Part shown: positions 1 through 61,253 of the stretch, in pieces
How the letters are laid out: the number at the start of each line of letters is the position of its first letter
How positions within the stretch are numbered: the first letter of the stretch is position 1
DNA from: a virus
Direction: 5' to 3' (one strand)
DNA: 64,000 bases
IMG/VR virus record: IMGVR_UViG_3300043442_000189
Translations under genes and position numbers: made by a program
The notes under the pieces: model-generated
Databases searched by the model: none
Seen by the model: the letters and a program-made list of their open reading frames with translations, nothing else
What the model was told of the DNA's origin: nothing

Positions 1-1505
1 TAGAAGAACTGATTCTTCTGAGTTACAAATTCACCTTTAGCATTCTTTATCTTAGTGCTAGTAAACTCTCTTGTTAGGAAATTAATTATCGCTTGTTTAG
101 CTGCATCTTTATCAGAAGTATCTACAGCGTCTCTACCTAGGAATATTGTACCGGTAGTTATGTCGTACCTGAAACTGTCTGCAGTGGTTCCGAACTGTGT
201 AAAGTTTGTAAGGAGATTAAACTTTTGTGAAGGTGTCATAAGAACACCTTTCTGTTTAATCATTATATCGTTTAGTAATAAGTCCGCTACTTTACTCGCC
301 ATCTCTTGAGTGTATGGCGCCATAAAGAACTCGATAGGTTGTGATATACCGGGGACGTTTATTACTTTCTTATCTCCCGCAACTACAGGATTGAAAGATG
401 TAATATTCTTTACATTAGAAATAGGAGTTTGCTCACTACTAGCAAGGTTCATAAACCCTCTACTAATATCTTCTATATTTAATCTTACAGCAGAATCTTT
501 GTTTGCATCTAAGTAGTCTTGAATATCTTTAAGTCTTGCAAAAGCTGTTTGATATCTGAACTCAATTGCTTCCGGAGTAGTTCCTTCAACTCTAGCAGCA
601 TACGCAACAGATTGTATGGTGAGTCCTTCTACTTGTGATAGGTCAAATACTAAATTACCAGCTGGTCCTTTTGTACTAGACGGTATACGTCTTTGTGGAA
701 AGTAAACAATTCTTCCATCTTCGTTTGTAGCATTCTCGTAAGTCTCAGAAAAATACAACGGATTACCCGTCTCATCTGTAAATACAACATACATAGTATT
801 TGCAGAAGTCTTGATATAAGCTTCTGAATCTCTAGTAGTTGGGTACAATTGATTAGTAGGTATACTTGAACCAAGTACCATTGATACATATACTTTTCTT
901 CCGTTAAAATCTATTCCTCCGTTTTGATCCGGACCACCCAGATCTAACATTCGTTTCTCAATTGTCTTTAAGAAATCGTAGTACCAAATCATATCCTCAG
1001 ATGCTAACTCATTACCTGTAGAGGTCATTGGGTCAGCGGGAATTGCTTGGAACTCTCCAAGAATCTTTAGTTCTGATTGAGGAGGTGTTTGTGCTTTCTT
1101 TGCTTCTTCGTTAGCTGACTGAGAAGCTGCAATAGTATTTTGTACAAGATTCTTGTTTACATACGTCCTAACATTCTCAATATCAGCATTAAAACTACTA
1201 GCTAACTTAAATAGTTCATTAAGGTCCAATGGTCCTTTTCTCTTCATGAGCTCGTCACTTATGTCACTAAATGCGGAAACGACTATTTTCATAGTCTCTG
1301 GTACCGCTCTTAATAACGTAAGTGCTTTATCAGGATCACCATAACCCTGTAAGGATCTGTCATACAAATACTTTAAGAACTTCGTCATAACGAAAGGACT
1401 ATCTGCATTAGCCGCTTTCTCAGAAAGAAGTTTATAAATAGCGGTTTCTAATTTATCAATATCACTTTTCTCTAGTGACCAGTTACTTGAAGAATCACAA
1501 ATCAT
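1..1505 (-). CDS. Giant virion/ejection protein, N-terminal 501 codons (runs off left edge; missing from ORF track)
   Basis: Manual translation from ATG at 1505 (MICDSSSNWSLEKSDIDKLETAIYKLL...KNAKGEFVTQKNQFF) shows no stop to position 3; starts 13 nt after the 3029-aa gene stop. Confidence 0.85.
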   Translation of the reverse strand, partial: MICDSSSNWSLEKSDIDKLETAIYKLLSEKAANADSPFVMTKFLKYLYDRSLQGYGDPDKALTLLRAVPETMKIVVSAFSDISDELMKRKGPLDLNELFKLASSFNADIENVRTYVNKNLVQNTIAASQSANEEAKKAQTPPQSELKILGEFQAIPADPMTSTGNELASEDMIWYYDFLKTIEKRMLDLGGPDQNGGIDFNGRKVYVSMVLGSSIPTNQLYPTTRDSEAYIKTSANTMYVVFTDETGNPLYFSETYENATNEDGRIVYFPQRRIPSSTKGPAGNLVFDLSQVEGLTIQSVAYAARVEGTTPEAIEFRYQTAFARLKDIQDYLDANKDSAVRLNIEDISRGFMNLASSEQTPISNVKNITSFNPVVAGDKKVINVPGISQPIEFFMAPYTQEMASKVADLLLNDIMIKQKGVLMTPSQKFNLLTNFTQFGTTADSFRYDITTGTIFLGRDAVDTSDKDAAKQAIINFLTREFTSTKIKNAKGEFVTQKNQFF

Positions 1506-1518
1506 TTCTTAAACTTTA

Positions 1519-4500
1519 TTATTTAGTAGGACAATAATTAAACAAATCATTCAAACTATCGTCTGTAGATGTATTATTCATTGCAGTACGTTTTGCTTTC
1601 ATTGCCTGAATTCTAGCTGCTGCATCATTAGTTAAATCTGACTGTGCAGCATCTGACTTTTTAACAGTTTCGGTTTTAGGTTTTGGAGCTTTTTCTTCAA
1701 TGGTCATTGGACGTAGATTTTGATTAATATCCTCTTCTGCTAAGGTACGAAACTTAGCATTGGTACGCAAATCTAAGTCAGCTACTGTATCAAGATTTTC
1801 AAACTTATCTGTAACATCGTGGAAACTTACAAAGGTAGTACCTTTATTATATGGTATTAGTATAAGCTTAGTTCCATTATCATTAAATTCGTATATAACG
1901 GGTTCCTTGATACGTACAACTATATCCTTGATTTCTAATTGATTAGCTACTTCTTGTTTCTTAGTTGCTATAAGTGATTGTACTTCTTCATATGTAGTTC
2001 CAGCAAGTGCTAACTCTTTATCTAAAGTACCTAATGTTATTGCGTTATTGAGTTCTGCTCTGATTAAAGTCAATTGACTCTTATTTGTAACAGCACCTAT
2101 TCTTGCTCTGATATCACCAAGTCCGGTTTGTTGAGCAGTTCCTTTTAAGATATCTACTCCATAGATAGCAGATATAGTTAACCTCTTGTCAGCAGGAACT
2201 GCTTTTTCAGCTTTATTGATATTATCTGTTCCAGCATCTCTCTTTATATCTGATAAAGGATTTACTATAATAACATCAAACATATTATAAAAAGGTAATG
2301 CTCCTGTATTATCAAATACTACAGTAGTTCCAGTTGCTGCTTCTTCCTTAGCATTTTTTAATGCTTGTTGATATAAATATGTACGGGCATTGTTAGCACC
2401 AAGGTTAGTTGCAGCTAAAGGATTTAAGTAATACAATACATCTTTAAGATTTATGATATTTGCAGATAGTGCTCTTATCAAACCTTCAGCAAGATCATTA
2501 TCGCTTTTGGTGGTTGCTGACTTTCTAGCATCCTTAGCAATTTCCATTAACCTATTAAATATTCTAGGTTCATTAAGAATATCCTCTATAAACTCATTAC
2601 CTTTTTTGACACCATCGCCCAATTCACCAAAGTCCTCTTTAATACTACTATCTGTAGTAATGTATATGACTTTACCTTTAAACTGAGGTGCTACATTATT
2701 TACTCTCTCTGCAGGTTTTGGACGAGGTTCTCTTTTAACAAACTGAATCTTATCTACAGGATCTCTTACTTCATATGTATTCCTATCTATATAGTAGATG
2801 TCTTGGGTTTGTCCTAACCCTTCATACATCGTCATAAAATCATCAAAGTCTACACCAGTAATATCAAAGAAGTTCTCTTTAGCTGTTTCTATATTACCTT
2901 CAGCTGATAGTTCTTTCTTTAAATCATCAAGTGTTTTTTGACTAACCCCCCTAGGATTACGTTTCATTAAATCTATGATCATTTCACGTAATTCATCTTC
3001 ATCAGTTGTTTCATGAATTACACCTGATCCTGTAACGTCTTCTCCTCCTTTTAACACCATGATAAACTGATCCCATCCCATAGCGGTTTTATCGTCAGTG
3101 AACCACGCTTTTTCACTAACATCTGTTGCCCAGGTTAAATCTTTAGATCTTCTAAACTTAGTACCTCTTAGATTTTGTAACATTACGTACTCTATATTAG
3201 AAGGATCTTCCCCTATCAAATAACTATGTTTTTCTATAGAGTCAGCTGCTTTATAGTATTGATCAAATATTTCTTTTCTTTCTGCGTCATTTAATATTTG
3301 ATTCCACCATACTTTAAACCAACCTTTATTATTTCTAAATAGATTCTTAGCAAGTTGTTTAGACTTTTTAAAACTATACTCGTATTCTTGTTTCTTATTA
3401 AAGAATCTCCACATCAACTTTTCTCTATCCCATAAAGCAATGCTAGCACCTTTATTTTCACCAATTGCCATTACACCAGCTTGCTTCTTTAGATACTCAT
3501 AGCTGTCTTTATTTACTCTTTCTTCTTTTTTAAACTCATTCCAATTATCTTTTGATGTCTTCTGGAAACCTTTAAATTCTAAATAATCAGAAACCATCTT
3601 ATCCATACCAGCAGCATTGCCAACATTGAAAGTAGTTACTCCTTGGTTGATAGCTTTATCTATAAGTGGTTTATAGAATAACTGGAAGTGTCTGTTAATA
3701 TCTTCATCATTAATCTTTCCGCCGGTTTGTTTAGGATTCCATGTACCACTACCACTAATCATTACAGCAGTTATTCCTGTAAAGTCACTAGGGTTAGCTG
3801 CAGTACCCCAACCTCTTTGATATGCTTCTGTTGCAGATACATACGTATCTTTTGTTTCAGGTGCTTTGGAACCAATAAACGCATCAGACACACGCATCAT
3901 CTCAATATCCTTACGGATATTCTTCGCTTTAGATGGTGCTGTTTTAATTAACTCTTCTGCAGCTTGTATCGCACTTTCTCTTGGAGTAGGTTCAGTTTGA
4001 GTATCATCTTTTCCTGTTTGTTTAGGTTCTTTTTCTGGTTGTTTACCTTCTAAAGCAGCTAGTTCTGCTTCATATTTAGCATTAATATCCCCTACAACTT
4101 TACCATTAACAGGAGTAGTAATCGTACCCTCAAGTCTTGCTTTTATATAAGCTCTTTGACCTCCTATACTTGTATAAACACTTCTTACAAAACCTTGACT
4201 TGTTAAATATCTAATTACTTTATCAGCATCTTTTTCTCCATTTTCTATAAATGCTTGAATAAGTTCTTCAGCAGTATTTTTTTCTTCCTCTGTTAATTCT
4301 TTATTATTTCCATCTGCAATATATTTCATCATAGTAGCAGAACCTACAGGGATAGCTTTTAACTCTTCTTGTTTCCTTCTTTCTATATCAGCTATAATAA
4401 CATCCATTACAGGTTTACCTTCAGGATTAGCAACAGGAGTCATTGTACCATCAGGATTATTATAGAATATTAATCCATTATCTACACTGTAGTTTGAAGT

Positions 4501-7500
4501 ACCAACTTGCCCTTCTATATCAGAAACAGGAGTTTTTGGTGTTTTTGTTTTTTCTAAAGGTTCTGTATTTTCAGAATCAACTCTTTCTGCAATTTTATCA
4601 GAAAGTATTTGACTATAGGACATATTCTTACCATTGATGACTTCATCTTTACCGTAAGATGATTCTAGTATTTTATCACCATAGAACTCTTTAGCTACCT
4701 GTAAAGCTAGTTTAGCATCATTTTCTGAATAACCATGCATTACTACTTGGTCACTTAAAGCAGGACCTTGTACTTCTAAATCCTGAAATATTTTAACATC
4801 ACCATTATAACCTCTTTTTTGAAGCTCTATCATAAAGTCTCTAAACATTTCTGGAGAAAAATCATTAAGATTTTTTAGTGAGAAATAACTTTTATGTGTA
4901 AAGGATTCATTGGTATTAGTTCCATTATTTATACCAAAGTATAACCATGAGTTAGAATCTTTAGTTCCCGAGTACAGTCTTACATTTTGAGCTAAGTACC
5001 TCTCTGCTTGAGGTTTATTCACAATAGCCATCATTGCTCTATAAAAAGAATCAAATGCTTTTTTAGATTCCTCAGTTAAAGAATCTCTATCTGCTTTTTT
5101 AATATCTATTATCTCTTGTGCAGTTGTAGCGTTTCGGTGTTTTGGATTTGTTCTAAGTTGTGAATCATCTATTTTTAGATAATTCTTAATAGCATAGTTA
5201 GCATATTCTTCTCTTGATAGTTTAGATAAATCAACACCTTCTGTTTTAGCAATTTTTGCTAATTCATATGAAGCATCCCATCCTGAAAGTTTTTTTCTTC
5301 TTTCTATTTCTTCTTTACTAGTAGTACCAGACGTTGGTGGTTTTGTAGCACCAGGTTTAACAATAGGATTAGCAGGATAGTCAAATACAGTTTGTCTTAA
5401 ACTAGATATCTTATATGTACTATCAGGAGTGGTGATATCCATAACATAACCAGTTCTAGACTTACCTTTCTCAGTTCTTCCTGGTACCATAATACTTCTA
5501 TTATATTTTATAGAAGATCCTGCCTCTTTCAACGTCAGTATTGGGAAAATATAAAGTTTATCAGCCACAATACCCGTTGATTGTCTCAATAGTTCACGGT
5601 ATGCAGCTAACTGTGCTTGATCCGATTCCTTATATAAATACAAGTAACCCTTCTGTGCGCTTTCTTTTAACTCAGGATATTTGTTTCCAAACTTTGCAAA
5701 AGCAAGAGTCATCTTATTCTGCATCTCCGGAGTCAGTTTGTTTCTTATAAGTAAACTATTTTCATTATCTTTAAGAATAGATTTAAACTCAGCATAGTCT
5801 TCACCCATTGCTTCTTCAAACGCTTCCTCTAATGCATACTGCTCATTTCTTTCTAGAGTAGAAGTCTTTAAGTCGATAATAAATATCTCACCTTTGTTAT
5901 TATATCCTAGTAAGTCAATAGAACCAGCAGCATCTTTACCGTCTAGTTTACCGTAGAGCGTAGGTATGTCAGAAATAATTTTAATTCCATTTCTATCTAA
6001 CGCACGTTTTACAGTTCTTAGATTATCAAATAACTCATTAAGGAAGTTTGCTGTAAAGATTGGTAATTCACTTGCGTCTTTGTCTGTAAATCCAGGTTTA
6101 GACGATATTTTATTTCTAGATGCAGTGTATGCATCTTTAAAGTCACCTATATTCTGAATACGATTATTTAAGAAATCTCTGGTAAGATCATCTATAATAG
6201 TTCCTCTAAATGATGAAGTCTTTGACTTAGCTTCAAATGGATCTTTTACAATAGTGGTAACACGTTCGAATAATGTACCATCTTCATCTACATAGTTCTT
6301 ATCATCTTCTGTTAATGATAATTTCTTAGCAGCTAGTTTTTGACGTGCTTCACGAAGTGCATCACTGATAGCTTCCATACCTTCTTCATTTAGTACAGAT
6401 GCTTTTGGTGACACAACTTTATTATTGATAATATCAAGTAACTCCTGTGTTGGAGTACCGTCAAGAATCATTGCGTTTATTTCCTGAATTGTATATCCTA
6501 ATGCTGTTGCAAGTTGGGGAATATTATCCATTGTGATAACAGTACCTGCAGTACCTTCACCCTCTTTCTCTTTTGCTTTCTTCTTTGTTTTGAAGTTTGA
6601 TATAATACGACGAGCTTCAAGATCATTAAGATACCATTCATCTAAAGTCATTCCTTTAGCAATCTCCGGATCTGTCTCTGCAACTTTTGTTTTCTTACTT
6701 TCAAAAGCTGCTTTTAATTCTTCTTGTAGTTTAGGATCTAATTTAGAAAATTCTTCAGCAGCAGATGCTGGTTGTTTTTCTTTTTCAGTAGATTTAGGAC
6801 CCTCTGACAACTTATTAGCAAGAACATTTAATGCTTGTTTATATACAGAGCGTTCTTCGTTAGTGATGTTAAGTAGCTTCTTAATAAAATCAGTAAGAGT
6901 CTTAAAGAATGCGCCAAACATAGTCTGTGCTTCCTTTGTCATATCGACTTGCTCACCAGTGTACTCATACTGTGCAGCTAGATTAGCAAAGAAAGGATTG
7001 GTTAACATCTCTGATAAGAAAGATGTATTATTAGTGAACGCATAAGCATATGATGCTTTTTGCTGATCGCTTAATTCTTTAAGTAAAGACTCTCTAATAT
7101 CTTTAATCTTATCTGTAAACTCTTTGTCAGAACTATTCTCTATAACAATCTTCTGCATCAAAGCGCTTAAGATAGAATACTCTATGGATACTTTATCCAT
7201 TCCTAATACCTTGTAGTCTTCGGAACTATATCGAGCATCTACCATTACACCATTTCTCTGATCGTATGTAGAGTTTGTATAGTGGTTTCTTACAAATGTA
7301 ATTTTCTCATTACCATCAAGAAGACCTTTTAGTAGTCTAGCAAGTTCTTTTTGTTGTACGGTACCAGGACCATTTATAACAGCAGTTAATACAGATCCGA
7401 TAGTTACTTCACTCATAGGTGCGGATCTATCAAATCCGAATTGTTTTGCCATATCAACAAAATTCCTTTTATCAGAATCTTCTTTAGCAGCTACAGTTTG

Positions 7501-53677: not shown

Positions 53678-54032
53678 TTAGTAATGCTTGTTTAAATCTG
53701 TTTCTTCTATGAACCAGTTCATGACTTTTGCTTTGTAATTCTTTATACGCAGCGAGTCTTTTTTCTAAGTCTGTATATTTTGCAATACCTGTATAATCTT
53801 TCTTATTTAAACTAGCTATTGCTTGATAAGTTTTAGCAATCTTTCCCGCTAACTTCTTTCTATTTATAGCAAACTCACCTAGACCTACTAAAAAAAGAAG
53901 AGGGTGTTCCTTATTAACCATTAACTTTCTGGTATAAGACCAATAGAATGAAAGAATCTCCTCAACGTCTTCAGCATTGTCTACTTCAGAACAATAGTCT
54001 TTTATTAACTGATTAACTGTTTTCGCTTTCAA
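53643..54032 (-). CDS. HU/IHF-like DNA-binding protein (TTG start)
   Basis: LIKDY..EEILSFYW..LFLVGLGEFAI resembles the HU/IHF N-terminal helices and first strand. Confidence 0.5.
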   Translation of the reverse strand: MKAKTVNQLIKDYCSEVDNAEDVEEILSFYWSYTRKLMVNKEHPLLFLVGLGEFAINRKKLAGKIAKTYQAIASLNKKDYTGIAKYTDLEKRLAAYKELQSKSHELVHRRNRFKQALLNDTKDQNNLEE

Positions 54033-54384
54033 CTCTTACAAATTTATAGTCTAACAAAATATTACCGGTTGTTTGAATCTTTAAGTCCGGATTAAGTTTG
54101 ATTAACTTATTGTAATCACCATTTTTAACGACTAGGTTTTTCTTTTCCGCTTTTGTAATCGCACTTCTAACAGATTGACTGCTACCAAAAATCTTGTTCT
54201 TGGTAGCAGTATCACAAAATTCTGTTAAAGGTTGTTCACCACCTAATGCTAAAAAGGTTAAGCAATTCAAATCTAAATCCGATACATTCATCTGTTTCAA
54301 TGTACAATGCGTTGCAATCTGAAAACGTACAATATTCCAGAGATCCATTCTTACAGTTTTACGTACCTGATTTACCTTTGCCAT
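54013..54384 (-). CDS. Winged helix-turn-helix DNA-binding protein
   Basis: SDLDLNCLTFL..SSQSVRSAITKAEKKNLVVK, MarR-like pattern; ATG at 54384 overlaps the upstream TGA. Confidence 0.55.
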   Translation of the reverse strand: MAKVNQVRKTVRMDLWNIVRFQIATHCTLKQMNVSDLDLNCLTFLALGGEQPLTEFCDTATKNKIFGSSQSVRSAITKAEKKNLVVKNGDYNKLIKLNPDLKIQTTGNILLDYKFVRVESENS

Positions 54385-54611
54385 CACTTCTCTTTTTTAG
54401 GTTCTTCATCAGTTTGTTCAGGAGCTGGTGCATAGATATTTGCAAGCTTCTGTTGTATCAATGCTCTACGTAAACGCTGTTCATCAATATCAGAGATTAA
54501 AGTCTCATATTCTTTTTGAACTTTTAGGAACTCCATTTCTTTTTGAAAGTGTTCCATCATCTCAGCTTTTCTAGCTTCGTACTCTTCTGGAGTAACTTCA
54601 TGTTGACTCAT
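54384..54611 (-). CDS. Small coiled-coil hypothetical protein
   Basis: 75 aa, charged helix; first gene after the host-type promoter. Confidence 0.6.
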   Translation of the reverse strand: MSQHEVTPEEYEARKAEMMEHFQKEMEFLKVQKEYETLISDIDEQRLRRALIQQKLANIYAPAPEQTDEEPKKEK

Positions 54612-54638
54612 ATACTGTTGGTTTTTAAAAGTTTAAAG

Positions 54639-54669
54639 CAAAGATATAATAAAAGTTTAAATTTCCAAA
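54639..54669 (-). promoter_or_regulatory. Bacteroidota housekeeping-sigma promoter (-33 TTTG / -7 TAnnTTTG)
   Basis: Minus strand TTTG (54669-54666), 19-nt spacer, TATCTTTG (54646-54639): matches the established Bacteroidetes consensus. Confidence 0.75.
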
Positions 54670-54673
54670 CATT

Positions 54674-54696
54674 AAAAAACCCAGACTAGCCGGGTT
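54674..54696 (-). terminator. Rho-independent terminator
   Basis: Minus strand AACCCGG-CTAGT-CTGGGTT-TTTT. Confidence 0.7.
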
Positions 54697-54717
54697 ACTT
54701 TAATATATGTTTGAAGA

Positions 54718-55032
54718 TTAATCCTCTTTCTTAGCTTTAATGTATCCTGTAAGCTCAGCAAGACTGGTACTTATCGTATTCATATGCTGATTAAGAGTGT
54801 CTATTTTAACAGAAAGTTTTTCGTGATCAGACTTCTGTTCATCTTTAATTTCTGACATACGCTTATATATTATAGTTTCTTTGTGTAGCATCTGAGTATC
54901 TATTTCTTTGATTTTAGTAACTGCTTTTTCTACGTCTTTCTTTAAAGCAAAATAAGCACCTAACACTGAAACAGCTAGTAAGATTATACCTATAACATCC
55001 TTTGCTGTAAATACTAAGTTTTCAGCTTCCAT
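54718..55032 (-). CDS. Single-pass membrane protein with coiled coil (holin-like)
   Basis: VIGIILLAVSVLGAYFAL hydrophobic helix followed by heptads; last gene of the fibre operon. Confidence 0.45.
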   Translation of the reverse strand: MEAENLVFTAKDVIGIILLAVSVLGAYFALKKDVEKAVTKIKEIDTQMLHKETIIYKRMSEIKDEQKSDHEKLSVKIDTLNQHMNTISTSLAELTGYIKAKKED

Positions 55033-55481
55033 TATACTATTTTATATAATCTTATTTCAAAAGGAAATCCTATATCTTTACTTTGTCCTATACCTCTAGA
55101 ATCTGGAGTAAAAGCACTTGAAGCATTTTCAGAAAAATATTGCAGTATAAGATTTTGAGTACTTAATGGATCTGGTATACATGCTACCACACAACTTGGA
55201 TGCATGGAAGTTCCGTTAAATACCTGAAATGTTTTTTTACTATAGGGTGATGTTTCAGCAAAAGCATGTATTACAACAAGTTCTACAAATCCATCATTTA
55301 CGGTACCTGGTACTACTGATAAACCTGTCTCATTAATAGTTTCTGATATATCTAGGGACCATGCTCCATCAAATTGAGGTGTGAAAAAACCACTTATGGT
55401 GTCATAAGGTTTACTACCTATATTTTCATAAATACCCTTTAAGAGTTCAATTGTATATCTTTCAAACTGAGGATCTGTCAT
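55032..55481 (-). CDS. Putative fibre/decoration protein with N-terminal anchor helix
   Basis: N-terminus FERYTIELLKGIY; small beta-rich C-terminal domain. Confidence 0.5.
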   Translation of the reverse strand: MTDPQFERYTIELLKGIYENIGSKPYDTISGFFTPQFDGAWSLDISETINETGLSVVPGTVNDGFVELVVIHAFAETSPYSKKTFQVFNGTSMHPSCVVACIPDPLSTQNLILQYFSENASSAFTPDSRGIGQSKDIGFPFEIRLYKIV

Positions 55482-55483
55482 AA

Positions 55484-55552
55484 CTATTGTTTTACCTTAT
55501 TATAGATTCCTTTTAGTAGCTCTATCATGTATTTCTTGAATGCTTCGCTCAT
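55484..55552 (-). CDS. 22-aa micro-protein MSEAFKKYMIELLKGIYNKVKQ (not in track)
   Basis: Fills the intergenic gap; shares IELLKGIY with the next gene's N-terminus; follows a GTATATTATA motif. Confidence 0.65.
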   Translation of the reverse strand: MSEAFKKYMIELLKGIYNKVKQ

Positions 55553-55554
55553 AC

Positions 55555-55564
55555 TATAATATAC
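55555..55564 (-). promoter_or_regulatory. Putative phage late promoter GTATATTATA
   Basis: Intergenic copy of the repeated motif preceded by AATTTTTT. Confidence 0.55.
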
Positions 55565-55570
55565 AAAAAA

Positions 55571-55771
55571 TTAAGGCTCTATAAAAATTAAATATGCTGT
55601 ATCAGGATTTGCAACAAGTAGATCTATAAAAAGATTTATACCCTTACTGTTTAAAGCGTTCACAAATTCTTCATTCGAATTTTCCCACGCGAAACAAATA
55701 GTACCCCACTTTGTATCGCTATTAATTGCAAGATGCGTTACATTATCTTCTTGAATTATTGAATATGTCAT
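55571..55771 (-). CDS. Small hypothetical protein (possible fibre chaperone)
   Basis: 66 aa, coupled (ATGA) to the fibre gene upstream. Confidence 0.5.
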   Translation of the reverse strand: MTYSIIQEDNVTHLAINSDTKWGTICFAWENSNEEFVNALNSKGINLFIDLLVANPDTAYLIFIEP

Positions 55772-57291
55772 GCAGTTATAGTAAATGATAATCCATTAAA
55801 TGCGCCACCGCTACCTGTTGCATTATTCACCCTTCTTATCGATAATTTATCACCTGCAACAAAAGTAACTGGATTGGTAGTATTTGAATAGGGTGTAGCA
55901 GTTGGAGCAGCTCCTGCTGCTATTGTAATAACAAGTGCAGTATCAACAGCATTTTTTCTAACAGTTATGACTTGTGAACCACTCGCTGGTTGAGTTAGTG
56001 TATAATGCATCAAATACATATTTGTTAATGTCATTGCATGAGGTATAATAACCGTTGATGTTTGTTCATTACTACCTGCTGTCATACCCACCCCTATCCA
56101 TGTAGTAGTACTTGCCGCTATAACAGCAGCCGTTTGAAAATTCCAAATTTGATTTGTTAATCCACTACCTCCCGAATACTGAGGGATATTTAACGTATTA
56201 CCCACCAAAGTAGCAGCTCCGCTTGATCCGGTAGTAGTTAAGGTTAATTGCTCTTGAGGAGTATATCCTAGTATGGTAGCAATAGATGCTGTTTTCCACT
56301 GAGCAGGACTTACTGTATTATCGTAATAAAGAGTATCTTTTAAACTAGGACTTTGAGCTTGCACATTATGTAACTCATCTAATTCATAACCATTCTGCAC
56401 CCTTACATAAAGTCTACCTGCGTTACCGTTACTAGCTGTAGTTACATAACCTAAATATACAAGATGATTAGGAGCATAAGGTTTTGTTTTAGTAATTGAT
56501 CCTGCTGTTGCTCCTAAATATACAGGATCGCTATCTGCCCATGTTGAAGTGGGTAGTATATTTAATCCTGTTAAAAGACCTTGCATAATAATAATACCTT
56601 GTTGACCAGCTGCTATAGATGAAGAAAATACTAAACCTATAGTCTGAGCAGATGTAGAATCTCCTGTATTATATGCTAGTTTTACTTTTAATCTATCACC
56701 CACACCACCAGATGCATATACAGGTTGTCCCTTAGTAATAGTTACAGTATCATCATTAGTTACGTAACTAAGTAATGTATTAGGAGATGTACCTATACAT
56801 TGAAAACTTGGTGTTGTAGAGTTATATACACAAAGCATTTCTGCTCCATCTAGTATATCTCCGGGAACTATAGGTCCGTCATTGTTACGATATAATGTAA
56901 TAGCACCTAAACCATTAATATTAAGAGTTGCTCCTGTAGTATTACCATTCGTAAATCTAATAAGATAAGCATCACCATCATTATACGCAGTAACTCCTGA
57001 TACCGTAGCTGTGTATGTGTCAGTTCCTGAAGCTGTAGTTTTGGGTATACCTTCGATTATAGTTAAATCACCAGATCCTAATACACTATTACTATTAATA
57101 GTCTTGATATTAGTACCAGAAACAAGAGTATCTTGTTTTGCATTTAACGCACTTTGTAAGTCTCCTTGACTAGATAATGTTCCAGTAATAGTTCCCCAGA
57201 CTGTTGCGCCCGGGGGTGAACTAACGATCAAATCATAAATAGTTTGAAGCTTTCTTAGTACTAATATTTGAAAACCTAAAAAAGGAATCAT
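55768..57291 (-). CDS. Tail/head fibre protein
   Basis: WGTITGTLSSQGDLQSALNAKQDTLVSGTNIKTIN; TASGTDTYT..LNINGLGA; KGQPVY..IGLV modules common in phage fibres. Confidence 0.7.
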   Translation of the reverse strand: MIPFLGFQILVLRKLQTIYDLIVSSPPGATVWGTITGTLSSQGDLQSALNAKQDTLVSGTNIKTINSNSVLGSGDLTIIEGIPKTTASGTDTYTATVSGVTAYNDGDAYLIRFTNGNTTGATLNINGLGAITLYRNNDGPIVPGDILDGAEMLCVYNSTTPSFQCIGTSPNTLLSYVTNDDTVTITKGQPVYASGGVGDRLKVKLAYNTGDSTSAQTIGLVFSSSIAAGQQGIIIMQGLLTGLNILPTSTWADSDPVYLGATAGSITKTKPYAPNHLVYLGYVTTASNGNAGRLYVRVQNGYELDELHNVQAQSPSLKDTLYYDNTVSPAQWKTASIATILGYTPQEQLTLTTTGSSGAATLVGNTLNIPQYSGGSGLTNQIWNFQTAAVIAASTTTWIGVGMTAGSNEQTSTVIIPHAMTLTNMYLMHYTLTQPASGSQVITVRKNAVDTALVITIAAGAAPTATPYSNTTNPVTFVAGDKLSIRRVNNATGSGGAFNGLSFTITA

Positions 57292-57356
57292 GGTGTTAAT
57301 GCTGCTATAATCTTATCTAGCAAATTTAATACTTTATTTTGAAAGTTTTGAATCAT
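57288..57356 (-). CDS. 22-aa micro-protein [22 protein letters not shown] (not in track)
   Basis: Start overlaps the upstream stop (TAATG) and stop overlaps the downstream start (ATGA); resembles the N-terminus of the next gene. Confidence 0.7.
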   Translation of the reverse strand: MIQNFQNKVLNLLDKIIAALTP

Positions 57357-59845
57357 TAGTAGCATCTATTTACATAACAGTTATAAGAACTTGTTGCCAA
57401 ATCATTATACAAATCTGCAGGGGGTTCGTAGACTAATCTATCACTAGGTGCATAATTAAAATACCTAGTAAACGCGGAGTATCCTTTTATACTAACCATT
57501 TCTCCTGCTATACTAGTAGTTGGAGCTGCCAATTGATTACCACAAGAAGGATATATAATTTTACCTATAGATTGACTAATTCCAAAAGTCGAACCTCCTG
57601 TTAATAGATTGGATGAATAAGAATTTGCAAAAAATGAACTTGTACCTATCCAACCTGGTATTATTGAATTGTTTTTATTAAAATTACCTGCATAACCACC
57701 ACTTGTAGCTTTTGGATTATTTGGATCGGCAGGATTTGTTATAGGATAGTCACTACCTGTAAACGTAAATGGTGATGATGATGATGTAGCGAGAGTCATT
57801 CCAAATATTAAACCATTAGGTACTATAGTTGGTGCAGGGTTAACATTCGGCCATGATCCTTGAACTCCTACTGTTAAAGATGGTCCGTATGGATAAATTG
57901 TATCTGTTGTTGTATCAATAATATAAGGTCTAAATAAACTATTTGGTATATTAGAACCAGTACCAGAAAAACCAGGATACATTATGATTTTTACATTATC
58001 CAACATCTGTTGAGTAGGACTTACTTTTATCAAGTCATTCACCTGAAAATTCTGCTGAAGAACATTACCTGCTGTAGTATCTTTTGCTACAAAAGTATTA
58101 TTAATTTTATCCACACTCTCTACAATCACACTTGAAGGATTTGTAAATGATCCTTGTCCTGAATAAACAGTAACGGTCATTCCGGTATAAATGTAATTAG
58201 AATCTGAAACTTTTATTGTGACTGTAGCACCCGACGTGTATGAAGTTGCTTCTGTTACTTTTGCAATATATTCACTAATAGGTTTTTCAATCATTGCTGT
58301 TCTAAAACCAGTAACAGCTGTATAGTCTGCAATATTCGATCTTAGCGCCAAACTATTTTTTGAATATATAACATTAGCATCTCCTAAACTCCATTTAGAA
58401 GGGTCTAGTATAAATACCCATCTAGACATACCAAATAGATATATTTTACCATTTGGATGTAAAATACCAGAATGAATATATGATAAAAATTGTCCTCGTA
58501 AACGTGTCCACCAAAATGTAGCATTTGTTGTAGGATAGGGTGCTACTTTACTTAAAGGTGAACCTGTATCATCAGTAGGAGTAAAAAATCTAGACGTGGA
58601 TGTAGCCGCCACACCGTTTATAAAAGTAGCTGTTATACCGTTATAAAAACCATGCATCTCCCATCTATCAGTGGATGAGGGATTTATTGATGTATTTCTA
58701 GGTGCGATTCTTACTAATATACCTCCAGCAACACCTGAAGTAGCTGCACCAGGCATGCAATATAGATACCCATCTTTTGCTAATACAGGAGCTCTTAAAT
58801 TACGAGCTACTACAAGAGGTTGTTGTGTAGTAGGATTTATCGCTGGTGAAAATTTAGTAGCAGCAATACTTGCAAATGTTTCTGTTTCCCAAGTACATGT
58901 TGGAAACTCCCCTCCTGATATTGTAGTTGCTACTGTAACATTATTAGGTACAGCTGAGTCTAATCTATAAGTTCCTACACCACCTGTACCTGTTGTTGCT
59001 AACGATGATGTTGTTATAGCTGTAGAAGCTACTGTTTGTGGAGTACTAACAATATATGTACCCGTTCCCCCAATACCAGTACCTAAAGCTGTAATTGTTG
59101 TTCCTGGAGTAATACCGGATCCTGATATTGTTGCGCCAACAAAAATTGTACCTGAAGCAACTGCTGAAACATTTAATGTAGTTCCTGAAATAGAACCTGT
59201 AAATGATGCTGTACCAGGATCTACAAATACTATAGTTCTAGTAACAGTATTACTTGTTACAGGATCTGTAAACGATATAGTTTGTCCTATACCATATGTT
59301 CCTGATGCAACAGATGTCATAGTTAAAACTCTATTAGATATTGTACCTTGTCCTGATGCTGTTGTTAAACCAGTAGAATATCCTGCATTAGGATTAAATA
59401 CCACTAATGAACTACCTGCAGGATTAGCTTCTGGAAATAAATACATTAAACCATTAGGTGCTAAAACAGGTCTTGCGTCAAATGCCTTATAAGATCTTTG
59501 ACAACCTGCTTGAGCACTATTTGTACCAGGAGCAGGATCAATCCATCCCGGTAGAGTAGGTCTATTTAAACTAGCATTTGTATATACAGTAAACCATTTA
59601 GTTTTTTCATTAGGTTTTCCTAATTTACCAACCACAACATAATCTTTAGCTTGATTATTGCAACCAAATAAATATACTAAACCATTAGGTGCAGTGACTG
59701 GTACAGACCATTGCTCAGTTCCCAGACCTGTTAATGCTGGAAAAGTTGTTGCGCCAACAGCTGATCCAGATGGTAATAAGAAAGGACTATATGATGCTAA
59801 ATATTGTGCCCAAATACCCGCTTGGGTTGCTGCAGTTGCTATCAT
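57356..59845 (-). CDS. Receptor-binding/fibre protein (beta-propeller-like repeats + GTGGxGTY beta modules)
   Basis: Repeated [11 protein letters not shown] / [11 protein letters not shown] / [11 protein letters not shown] blades; Thr/Gly-rich inserted modules. Confidence 0.6.
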
Positions 59846-59849
59846 AATC

Positions 59850-61253
59850 TTATAGGAATGAACTAATTAAATCACCAAACATGTACCAATTAGAATTACC
59901 AGAAAGTGACCAAGCATTTTGTTTTACAAGTGTGACACCACTTCCTGTACTTCTTAGTCTATTCATACTATCAGCACTGGTTAAAACAACATTTGTAGTT
60001 GCTGTAAGAGCTGTACCTGGAGTTACTGATGATGGGATATTAACCACATATGTACCAGCACCCCCTGTAGTACCTGATGATTGAGATACAATAACAGTTC
60101 CTGAATTAACACCAGTACCGCTAACTGTAGCTCCTGGATATAGCGTACCTGAAGCTACAGCAGTAACTGTCAAAGTAGTTCCTGATATACCACCAGTTAC
60201 AGATGCCGCTCCTGGAACAACTACATCGACGTTTACACCGGAACCGGAAAGTTTTACAATCATTGTTTGAGCACCTACTGGATAAGTTGAATCTGATAAG
60301 TTTGGTACAATAATCTGAATATTTGAACTACTGTTAACAAGAATTACTTTACCAACATCAGTTGCGCTTAATATATGAGTAGACACAGCTCCGGTAATAG
60401 TAACAAATCCTGCTACAGTTGCTGCTGCAGTTACTGCAGAATATCCAATAGATTGTGGAGTAGTTACAGTTGACCAGTCTGCTGTAGTTGTTGTAGCATC
60501 AGTATCATCATTGGATACAAATAAAGACAATCTATAAAGAGTTTGTCCTGATCCTGGTGTTCCGATAGTTTGACTCCAACCGTTTAATGTTGCAGGGTTT
60601 GAAAATGTACCATTTGCCCACGTGTAGACGGATGTTCCTGAAGGAAGTAATGTTGGTATACCATTATTCCACAAATACAAATCCATATATGCAGATCTTC
60701 TACCAGCAGGTCCTTCTAAACCTAACTGCGCCCAGTAAATATTTGATGAAACTCCATCCATTATAGGTAGATTGAAACCTGCAGGAGGAGTAGCTGTATC
60801 ATTATACATCCAGTATGTGTAGTAGATATTTGTTCCTGGATCTACGTATGATACAACATCATTATATACATAGTTTGCCGTAGCAATATTCCAAGTACCT
60901 CTCCAATTCAAACCATTAGGAATACTAACAGTATTAAATTTAATAATACTATTTTCACCAGGTGTAAATGGGTCAGTTTTTTGAACATACTGAGAAGAAC
61001 TTTCTGTTTTTTCATAAATTTCAGTGAATCCTGCAGGGTCTGCGTATAGTTGAAAATTTACACCACCACCTCCACCACCACCAATAGCAGCAGCAAGGTC
61101 ACTAAGTGTCATTGCATAGGGTTGCCAGGTATCTTGTTTTTTCAAACTACCTGCAGTGTTAGTACCAATAATGACTAAGTCATTATTTAAATCTCTTGGT
61201 GTCTTAGCTAGTCTTTTAGACTTTAGTAGATCTGACCAGTTATTAATTTGCAT
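59850..61253 (-). CDS. Tail fibre protein
   Basis: N-terminal anchor plus poly-Gly hinge; [14 protein letters not shown] module; [19 protein letters not shown] module. Confidence 0.65.

Follow-up and report, generated by a model that had tools for sequence, protein, structure and literature searches.

Conserved 22-codon genes resembling the N-terminal helix of neighbouring fibre-module proteins in a phage distantly related to Crassvirales

The window analyzed here is a 64,000-nucleotide stretch of viral DNA (IMG/VR record IMGVR_UViG_3300043442_000189). Its minus strand carries a fibre module in which two 22-codon genes, micro1 and micro2, lie among much larger fibre-like genes (Table 1). The portal, terminase and major head protein of this phage match PHROG families of those functions, and tblastn with the portal returned crassviruses, Cellulophaga phi17:2-like phages and Leptolyngbya phage Lbo-JY46 at 23-33% identity. 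By sequence comparison, the source phage is related to Crassvirales, distantly. A search of the cultured/GenBank phage collection gave no match for the DNA of the region, the 149-aa protein, a conserved 124-aa neighbour or a fibre of the B type described below.

Table 1. Genes and features of the fibre module (positions in the window)
Feature	Position	Strand	Basis or remark
467-aa fibre protein, 'NW' N-terminal domain	59850..61253	-	alignment A3
829-aa fibre-like protein, upstream of micro1	57356..59845	-	swapped for other proteins in relatives
micro1: 22-codon gene	57288..57356	-	ORF and TAATG/ATGA junctions; orthologues
507-aa tail-fibre-like protein	55768..57291	-	PHROG tail / tail-fibre matches
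66-aa protein after the 507-aa fibre	55571..55771	-	ATGA-coupled; kept in related modules
18-nt T-rich motif ending ..GTATATTATAGT	55553..55570	-	immediately 5' of the micro2 start codon
micro2: 22-codon gene	55484..55552	-	ORF; helix paralogue of the 149-aa N-terminus
149-aa anchored knob protein	55032..55481	-	AlphaFold2 model; family alignment A2
104-aa membrane/coiled-coil protein, weakly holin-like	54718..55032	-	PHROG holin E 0.007

The 467-aa protein begins with a conserved domain of ~60 aa ('NW', alignment A3), which represents a second, different type of anchor, and in many relatives a micro-gene lies immediately 3' of the 'NW' fibre gene. In the 507-aa fibre, the anchor helix spans residues ~4-22. 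The central domain of this protein is widespread among phage fibres with other N-termini: it is common to 80 loci, among which the N-terminus of the 507-aa fibre is kept only in the closest relative, L003 (91% identical). Three further contigs, detected by pattern scans, carry this N-terminus on fibres that differ in length. The 149-aa protein was modelled by AlphaFold2 (pLDDT 90.6) with a helix at the N-terminus (residues 4-22) and a jelly-roll-type beta-sandwich after it. The best structural matches of this model in VIA-align were WSSV VP37 (Z 8.6), PRD1 P5 and TNF/C1q-type knobs (Z ~5-6), all with middling scores; Foldseek gave no clear match in PDB, and ESM Atlas features yielded nothing useful. 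The 66-aa protein has no Pfam or PHROG match, and its position alone prompts the guess that it could be a fibre chaperone. The 104-aa holin-like protein was used as a conserved marker for gathering related loci, of which 36 were obtained.

Both 22-aa ORFs named in the original prediction were present when the ORFs were read, and the coupling described for micro1 was seen at both of its ends: its start codon lies within TAATG, which also holds the TAA stop of the 829-aa gene, and its TGA stop lies within ATGA, which also holds the start codon of the 507-aa fibre gene. The gene upstream of micro1 varies among relatives. An alternative in-frame ATG at 57365 would extend micro1 to 25 aa; the relative read for comparison (L098) has no ATG there. 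Micro2 ends with TAG, followed after 2 nt by the ATG of the 149-aa gene. We also considered whether these short ORFs could be products of recoding. Stop-codon recoding was rejected, as readthrough of either micro stop would be halted by a further stop within 2-5 codons. An alternative genetic code was likewise rejected, given that the window has intact long table-11 ORFs throughout its length and that orthologous micro-ORFs end with TAA, TAG or TGA depending on the phage. Finally, a frameshift or readthrough product that fuses a micro-ORF to the fibre was discarded because the frame and spacing of the junction to the next gene vary and readthrough runs into stops at once.

The pattern F-x3-[VMT]-[LI]-x2-L-x2-I had been read in four sequences, namely the two micro-ORFs and the N-termini of the 507-aa and 149-aa proteins. 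Among the 316 ATG-ORFs of at least 20 aa in the window (29,753 residues), it was matched four times, always N-terminally and in exactly these sequences, a count that is partly circular because the pattern was derived from the same four. The further claim that each micro-ORF copies the N-terminal helix of the gene directly downstream was upheld for micro2 within the window and for micro1 through its relatives, and failed for micro1 against the window's own fibre. Micro2 scored 57 against the N-terminus of the 149-aa protein, and none of 2000 shuffles (0/2000) reached this score. In the window itself, micro1 scored 19 against the N-terminus of the fibre, a score that 420/2000 shuffles also reached and that is not above chance; for the same pair in relatives, scores were 40-45 in four contigs (0/2000) and 26 in a fifth (25/2000). 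Since four relatives score 40-45, the homology of micro1 is real but eroded in the window genome. In the other types, micro-proteins scored 39-103 against their anchors for micro2 and the B types (0/2000) and 35-44 for micro3 (no more than 1/2000), and the similarity of A4-type micro-ORFs to downstream N-termini was not significant in the shuffle test.

Approximately 40 related metagenomic phage contigs share the arrangement, with one micro-gene of 19-37 codons and a protein with a similar N-terminus in the same fibre module. The micro-gene is usually located immediately upstream of the anchored gene, or else within a few genes of it. Orthologues of micro1 with exactly 22 codons were detected in 5 IMG/VR contigs (pN/pS 0.03-0.5); this protein is a helix-only version of a 34-37-aa 'B' micro-protein family and has the same ..LTP end as the B-type proteins P0006 and P0010. 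Orthologues of micro2 (21-22 codons) were found in 5 IMG/VR and 8 metagenome contigs (13 besides the window). Conservation and purifying selection in relatives, among the checks named with the original prediction, were found for both micro-ORFs: each type keeps a constant length, most pN/pS values between orthologues lie at 0.2-0.4, and codon positions 1, 2 and 3 hold 44, 25 and 69 variable sites (chi-square p = 2.5e-5). The peptide is also conserved where the junction to the next gene is a gap of 10-36 nt. On these comparative grounds, micro1 and micro2 are genuine, conserved protein-coding genes of an 'anchor-only' family of 19-37 aa. When a profile of the B-type micro-protein was searched against 1.84 billion proteins, 57 matches were obtained, nearly all at residues 1-34 and with bodies of 35-766 aa. 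The B-type anchor itself occupies residues 1-34 in proteins of 65-766 aa. The 19-22-aa forms are absent from this collection, probably because they are below the length used by gene callers.

Codon usage bears on the age of these genes. In the window, micro2 and its anchor share 10 of 17 aligned residues, only one of the 10 with the same codon (pS ~1.1), and, in general, comparison of micro2 with its anchor shows saturation at synonymous sites (pS 0.8-1.1; same codon in 1-3 of 7-10 identical residues). The micro-genes are, as judged by this divergence, old paralogues of the anchor helix that have been kept by selection. Two pairs depart from this: identical residues have the same codon in 9/10 cases for micro1 in L108 and in 9/9 for micro3 in L111, which indicates recent duplication or gene conversion.

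The short amphipathic helix itself is exchanged between proteins. An identical N-terminus of 23 residues is found in the window and L108, where the C-domains are ~38% identical, and in L109 the C-domain is 80% identical and the N-terminus differs. The fibre modules are mosaics whose breakpoints adjoin the helix, and the joint between anchor and body contains Gly-rich linkers in many relatives. Sequence comparison shows the N-terminal helix as an exchangeable unit attached to receptor-side domains that vary, and, as with docking peptides, a short N-terminal segment is conserved across proteins whose remainder has diverged. This exchangeability is what would be expected of the docking or oligomerisation anchor that had been proposed; as for attachment proper, we infer that the helix attaches its protein either to the virion or to a different fibre. 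Docking of the anchors on the 'NW' fibre was considered and is weakened by one complete genome that has a micro-gene and anchored protein pair and no NW protein.

The pairing of micro-genes with anchored proteins is close. Three complete genomes of relatives and one 86%-complete genome contain exactly one micro-gene and one anchored protein each, and 18/18 B-type loci have exactly one micro-gene with 1-2 anchored proteins. Among the 10,940 ORFs of the loci gathered by then, a set that takes in ~80 fibre loci with other N-termini as well as L115, which lacks both micro-gene and anchored protein, no micro-type ORF scored where the anchored protein was missing. In the B type (34-37 codons), the micro-proteins are one conserved lineage and the anchors another (identity 0.69 between micro-proteins, 0.68 between anchors and 0.50 between the two groups), and lineage residues differ in most loci, for example position 8, which is Tyr in micro-proteins versus mostly Pro in anchors. 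Cognate pairs are slightly more alike than non-cognate pairs (88.5 versus 85.3, permutation p ~0.01, uncorrected for shared ancestry); because this margin is small, specific co-evolution of micro-protein and anchor is weakly shown. As a rule, the micro-protein of a pair is basic and the anchor acidic or neutral, with mean net charges of +2.9 and -0.8, respectively, and the micro-protein is the more positive member in 21/24 pairs (~5 independent families). The micro1 family does not follow this charge pattern and one B subtype follows it weakly, and in L149 the charge signs and helix motifs are apparently swapped between the micro-gene and the anchored gene. Because there is one micro-gene per anchored protein in complete genomes, the lineages are separate and conserved, and the charges usually differ, the comparative data lean towards the micro-protein being a dedicated partner; they give no preference to control of fibre occupancy over the other readings.

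We tentatively favour a reading in which the micro-protein is a small subunit consisting of the anchor alone, which assembles together with the anchor helix of the fibre or knob at the attachment joint. The free helix would serve as a dedicated small subunit of this joint and would pack on the anchor helices tethered to its cognate protein by way of a shared hydrophobic face and a usually opposite charge, and the packed helices would complete a docking helical bundle. If the bundle is completed in this manner, the joint would be a two-gene device consisting of a free helix and an anchored protein. Micro-anchor pairs are often translationally coupled. A complex prediction with three B-type anchors (residues 1-50, alignment A4) and three B-type micro-proteins (alignment A5) scored 0.26, the mark being 0.32, which does not speak for or against the complex; it used the 36-aa form of a relative, as the 22-aa peptides of the window fall under the 30 residues advised for the tool.

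Several other readings of the same data were weighed. The original prediction had offered plug, hetero-oligomer partner and competitor as roles for the peptides. The micro-protein could act as a plug or competitor that fills the virion socket of the anchor and caps sites without a body, thereby setting the number of fibres or filling sterically inaccessible sites. The micro-proteins have kept the hydrophobic pattern of the anchor despite saturated synonymous sites, micro2 and its anchor have 8 consecutive identical residues, as would fit two peptides binding the same site, and the Gly-rich linkers mean that each helix could bind a site alone. Yet a plug should track its anchor, whereas the micro lineage has residues of its own and usually a different charge, and complete genomes with one micro-gene and a single anchored protein leave no competition between fibres to arbitrate; we consider this reading unlikely. 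Less probable again is a non-structural helper, a free helix that pairs transiently with nascent anchors, nucleates or protects them before docking and is absent from the virion, in the manner of T4 gp57A, a small helical fibre chaperone. Tight translational coupling to the client gene, one-to-one pairing of the genes and the match of a basic amphipathic helix with an acidic client helix are all consistent with such a helper. Against it, to our knowledge, fibre chaperones bear no likeness to the termini of their clients, and a conserved gene of 66-74 aa already lies downstream of the fibres, a common place for chaperone genes.

A further reading is decay. Here the micro-genes would be truncated fibre genes reduced to the docking peptide, perhaps retained as landing pads for recombining new fibre genes, and both the mosaic modules with breakpoints beside the helix and the codons shared by micro1 in L108 and micro3 in L111 with their anchors would suit this. 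This reading is already disfavoured and we regard it as very improbable: length and sequence are retained even where the marker protein of a phage is only 37-50% identical to that of the window, pN/pS and the third-position excess reveal purifying selection, micro-proteins and anchors are distinct conserved lineages, an intact anchored gene is present in the same module and usually adjoins the micro-gene, and the low DNA identity between micro2 and its anchor offers little substrate for recombination. We give marginally less credence still to a leader or upstream ORF, whose translation would only supply ribosomes to the downstream gene or regulate it, the peptide being functionless. The TAATG and ATGA overlaps, the position of micro2 as the first ORF after a conserved promoter-like motif and the lack, on inspection by eye, of a Shine-Dalgarno-like sequence ahead of micro1 and micro2 in the stretch that was read are compatible with a leader, but it leaves unexplained the paralogy to the anchor, the amino-acid conservation with synonymous turnover and the conservation of the peptide across junction gaps of 10-36 nt.

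Eukaryotic microProteins such as LITTLE ZIPPER and Id are tiny paralogues of the interaction helix of a larger protein and act as dominant-negative regulators of transcription factors. The micro-proteins described here are likewise homologous to the interaction domain only, in the context of virion fibre attachment. An extension of the co-assembly model, in which the large uncultured crAss-related clade of this phage uses an obligate two-gene fibre joint with a free 2-4 kDa helix paired with each tethered anchor, would make this the first phage 'microProtein'; we consider this extension doubtful. Literature searches found no described free fibre-anchor peptide or phage microProtein.

Among known attachment systems, the branched ('anchor-branch') receptor-binding proteins (RBPs) of Klebsiella phages KP32/K11/KP34, of K1-5/K1E/SP6 and of G7C carry a conserved N-terminal docking peptide (PMC6872550), for which experimental validation is given in PMC13352976. 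These peptides, of 7 to 29 residues in the quoted examples, fix unrelated, horizontally exchanged RBP bodies and differ between phage groups (PMC6872550, PMC13352976). A short N-terminal segment on exchanged, diverged bodies is common to both systems; in the branched RBPs the peptide occurs only within the fibre and pairs with a T4gp10-like branching domain, whereas here the helix also has a gene of its own. Sequence searches of the 467-, 829- and 507-aa proteins gave no Pfam or PHROG match to a T4gp10-like or other partner domain. The nearest parallels in size are the truncated second RBPs of KpV767 (69 aa including a 29-aa peptide) and KP-Rio/2015 (61 aa), which keep the docking peptide; they are reported as single-phage cases that replace an intact RBP, are read as retrograde evolution and have been proposed as landing pads (PMC6872550). 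The likeness lies in a very small ORF with the anchor peptide and without a receptor-binding body. By contrast, the micro-genes (19-37 aa) do not replace an intact gene, as an intact anchored gene follows each of them, and, with purifying selection, fixed length and a lineage of their own in ~40 contigs, they are not sporadic, decaying or unselected.

In crAss001, gp22 residues 1-26 dock in the THA2-THB tail hub, and gp21 residues 1-38 and gp29 residues 1-58 of the head fibres dock in pockets of the capsid hexons (PMC10172136). This distantly related phage offers a precedent for docking by a short N-terminal segment. Its small fibre proteins consist of a short N-terminal docking segment and a small beta-domain, are encoded beside lysis genes, and its joints contain small unequal subunits (A2B hubs); a free anchor peptide is not mentioned in the excerpted description (PMC10172136). 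The likeness is by analogy only, as no sequence similarity to the N-termini of gp22 or gp29 was detected. A resemblance of the 467-aa N-terminus to gp22 noticed by eye was dropped after BLASTP against gp22 residues 1-77 gave E 85, and the profile of the 149-aa family matched gp29 with a probability of 0.2%.

Docking peptides are the handle for swapping RBPs, whether among phages in nature or by engineering. A conserved anchor copy with a gene of its own would add a component to fibre attachment for which no prior description was found. If attachment requires the micro-protein as a subunit, a fibre swap could fail when the anchored gene is moved alone, and cryo-EM maps of such phages should hold unassigned helices at the fibre joints; a true two-gene joint would imply a new rule for the transfer of RBP modules, namely that the micro-gene moves with its anchor. 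The finding also provides a concrete, testable viral case of a micro-protein that consists of an interaction domain only.

The region was also examined for nucleic acid signals. Rfam returned no credible RNA family in 54000-58500. The same or nearly the same 18-mer as that found before micro2 precedes micro2 or micro3 in 9 loci and in 8 metagenome contigs, and its core TTGTATATTAT also occurs in other gene-start gaps of the window, at a count not above that in shuffles. The motif is promoter-like; if it does act as a promoter, the transcript may start at or near the ATG of micro2.

All genes from 53 to 62 kb of the window lie on the minus strand, and re-reading of the ORFs and their junctions reproduced the coordinates, peptides and coupling that the original prediction had assigned to the two 22-codon micro-genes, micro1 and micro2. 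The start of micro1 overlaps the stop of the 829-aa gene as TAATG, its end overlaps the start of the 507-aa fibre as ATGA, and the TAG stop of micro2 is followed 2 nt further by the start of the 149-aa gene. An in-frame ATG 9 bases upstream of micro1, within the 3' end of the 829-aa gene, would extend it to 25 aa; no ATG was present there in L098, the one related contig read at this position. The window is contained in a 91.5-kb IMG/VR virus record (G+C, 35%) whose portal, terminase and major head protein have phage-family matches, with portal identity of 23-33% to crassviruses, Cellulophaga phi17:2-like phages and a Leptolyngbya phage; it therefore represents a distant, uncultured crAss-related phage.

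Positions of the micro-genes and associated features in the window and in related contigs (L-numbers)
Contig	Feature	Position	Strand	Length
Window	467-aa fibre protein	59850-61253	-	467 aa
Window	in-frame ATG upstream of micro1	57357-57365	-	
Window	829-aa fibre-like protein	57356-59845	-	829 aa
Window	micro1	57288-57356	-	22 aa
Window	507-aa fibre	55768-57291	-	507 aa
Window	66-aa protein (65-74-aa protein)	55571-55771	-	66 aa
Window	conserved 18-nt motif	55553-55570	-	18 nt
Window	micro2	55484-55552	-	22 aa
Window	149-aa protein	55032-55481	-	149 aa
Window	104-aa protein, weakly holin-like	54718-55032	-	104 aa
L108	65-74-aa protein	7256-7456		
L110	65-74-aa protein	7267-7470		
L149	65-74-aa protein	5321-5545		
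L149	acidic micro-protein, basic anchor	4001-4126, 4356-5324		
L149	NW version	4129-4353		74 aa
L146	GroES-like protein	3511-3834		107 aa as called
L165/L166	GroES-like protein	2506-2787		
L168	GroES-like protein	712-993		

The proposal that each micro-ORF copies the N-terminal helix of the next gene held for micro2, which agrees with the 149-aa N-terminus at 10 of 17 aligned positions, eight of them in one unbroken block (score 57, reached by 0/2000 shuffles). For micro1, comparison with the fibre N-terminus of the window gives no significant likeness by itself (score 19, reached by 420/2000 shuffles), and the corresponding pair in four relatives scores 40-45 (0/2000 shuffles); the fibre N-terminus of the window has drifted. 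The proposed helix motif is indeed confined, among 316 window ORFs, to the four sequences named for it, which is weak support because the motif was derived from the same four.

Relatives were gathered by searches with the 149-aa protein and the fibre, by degenerate DNA patterns, by a conserved 104-aa marker gene independent of the micro-ORFs, and by an alignment of the micro-proteins. Conserved micro-ORFs were found in related phages as anticipated: a micro-gene with an anchored protein, i.e., a fibre or knob protein bearing the short N-terminal helix (anchor), occurs in approximately 40 contigs and falls into five sequence types. These are the micro1 type (22 aa, 5 contigs), the micro2 type (21-22 aa, 13 contigs), a 20-aa type preceding 138-171-aa proteins with a matching helix, a 19-20-aa type preceding 139-145-aa proteins whose N-termini show no significant likeness to it, and a B type (34-37 aa; 18 IMG/VR contigs plus ENA and JGI contigs). 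The marker protein of B-type phages is no more than 37-50% identical to that of the window. The ..LTP/..ETP end of micro1 also terminates two B-type representatives, which makes micro1 the B family reduced to its helix. The B-type micro-proteins themselves are already on record as 'hypothetical protein' (four clusters, 23 sequences in the NCBI, JGI, ENA and Logan collection); the tested 20-22-aa forms have no entry there, and in this sense the micro-genes are hidden, as was claimed.

The N-terminal helix behaves as a module. Between the window and L108 the first 23 residues are identical and the C-domains approximately 38% identical; in L109 the C-domain is 80% identical and the N-terminus different. 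The central domain of the fibre was found in 80 loci, among which only the closest relative has the same N-terminus, and pattern scans detected this N-terminus in three more contigs, on fibres of other lengths. A profile of the B micro-protein matched 57 proteins among 1.84 billion, nearly all at residues 1-34, on bodies of 35-766 aa, often joined through Gly-rich linkers. The model of the 149-aa protein (pLDDT 90.6) has a helix at 4-22 and a beta-sandwich, whose best structural matches are WSSV VP37 (Z 8.6) and PRD1 P5 and TNF/C1q-type knobs (Z 5-6); these middling scores indicate a common fold of knob type and say nothing of function. Docking by short N-terminal segments is established in crAss001 (PMC10172136) and, for segments termed 'conserved peptides', in branched RBP systems (PMC6872550; PMC13352976). 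By analogy, the helix of the window's proteins may be a docking anchor; comparison with crAss001 gp22 and gp29 gave no sequence similarity.

The micro-ORFs are under purifying selection, the absence of which had been named as refuting: pairs of micro1 and of micro2 orthologues give pN/pS values of 0.03-0.8, most of them 0.2-0.4, and variable sites of all types are distributed 44/25/69 over codon positions 1/2/3 (p = 2.5e-5). Comparison of micro2 with its cognate anchor (that of the partner protein in the same module) shows saturated synonymous sites (pS 0.8-1.1), and just 1-3 of 7-10 identical residues are encoded by the same codon; their likeness is maintained in the protein and does not reflect recent duplication. 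Two other pairs (micro1 in L108, the 20-aa type in L111) do have codons in common, so gene conversion or re-duplication has also occurred occasionally. Junctions with the downstream gene are ATGA, TAATG or gaps of 1-36 nt, differing in frame. Such variation in type, gap and frame excludes a programmed frameshift product, and stop-codon recoding is excluded by further stops directly after readthrough and by the use of all three stop codons among orthologues.

The micro-gene family is real, and four comparative facts favour a dedicated partner of the anchored protein over a by-product or simple plug. The first is pairing: exactly one micro-gene with one or two anchored proteins in 18/18 B-type loci, and exactly one of each in three complete genomes and in a fourth at 86% completeness. 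The second is co-occurrence: among the 10,940 ORFs of the loci examined, no micro-type ORF scored outside loci encoding an anchored protein, and L115 lacks both. The B-family micro-proteins and anchors are separate conserved lineages, with identities of 0.69 within micro-proteins, 0.68 within anchors and 0.50 between, and several residues set them apart in most loci. Finally, micro-proteins are usually basic (mean net charge +2.9) and cognate anchors acidic or neutral (-0.8), the micro-protein having the higher charge in 21/24 pairs. In the JGI contig L149, the usual charge pattern is reversed, and micro-typical and anchor-typical helix motifs appear exchanged between the two genes. On these facts we adopt, with modest confidence, the reading of the micro-protein as a putative free helix subunit, which would pack against the tethered anchor helices and so build the attachment joint. 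Counting against it, the charge rule does not hold for micro1, likeness within cognate pairs only slightly exceeds that within non-cognate ones, and the 'NW' fibre can be dispensed with (one complete genome has the pair and no NW protein).

The finding belongs with the already known attachment of phage fibres by anchors or docking peptides. Two kinds of described counterpart come nearest: docking peptides in branched RBP systems, and the second RBPs of two Klebsiella phages, which are truncated to 61-69 aa and have been read as decay products or landing pads (PMC6872550). The micro-genes depart from that latter reading in two defining features: their module also holds an intact anchored gene, and they form a conserved lineage under selection. 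Functionally, the micro-genes resemble eukaryotic microProteins, of which no phage case was found in the literature searched.

An 18-nt motif, a T-run followed by GTATATTATAGT, directly abuts the start codon of micro2 and of the 20-aa type (micro3) and is nearly invariant across phages (the window, L108, L110, L111, L116, L118-L120 and L169-L176); variants with TGTATATTAT lie before the B-type micro-genes of L146, L165 and L168. It may be a phage promoter whose message is leaderless or nearly so. The motif core also lies 5' of other gene starts in the window (52663, 45213, 40899 and 30020).

In many relatives, a protein of 65-74 aa whose C-terminal half is conserved is encoded 3' of the fibre gene and ATGA-coupled to it; it has no Pfam or PHROG match, and its gene position suggests a putative fibre assembly helper. 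The NW domain (~60 residues at the start of the 467-aa fibre; alignment A3) is a second anchor system of the same module. It is conserved in both phage groups on bodies of 74-618 aa, with two to three consecutive NW-type genes in some genomes (L163, L164), and the version in L149 has little beyond this domain. The 829-aa and 467-aa proteins both match phrog_21413 and have in common a ~55-residue Gly/Thr/Ser-rich segment, and a similar segment is visible in P0059, an unrelated anchored protein from the profile search. One B subgroup encodes a protein of ~93 aa resembling, by eye, a GroES-type co-chaperonin, two genes (~170-220 nt) upstream of the micro-gene.
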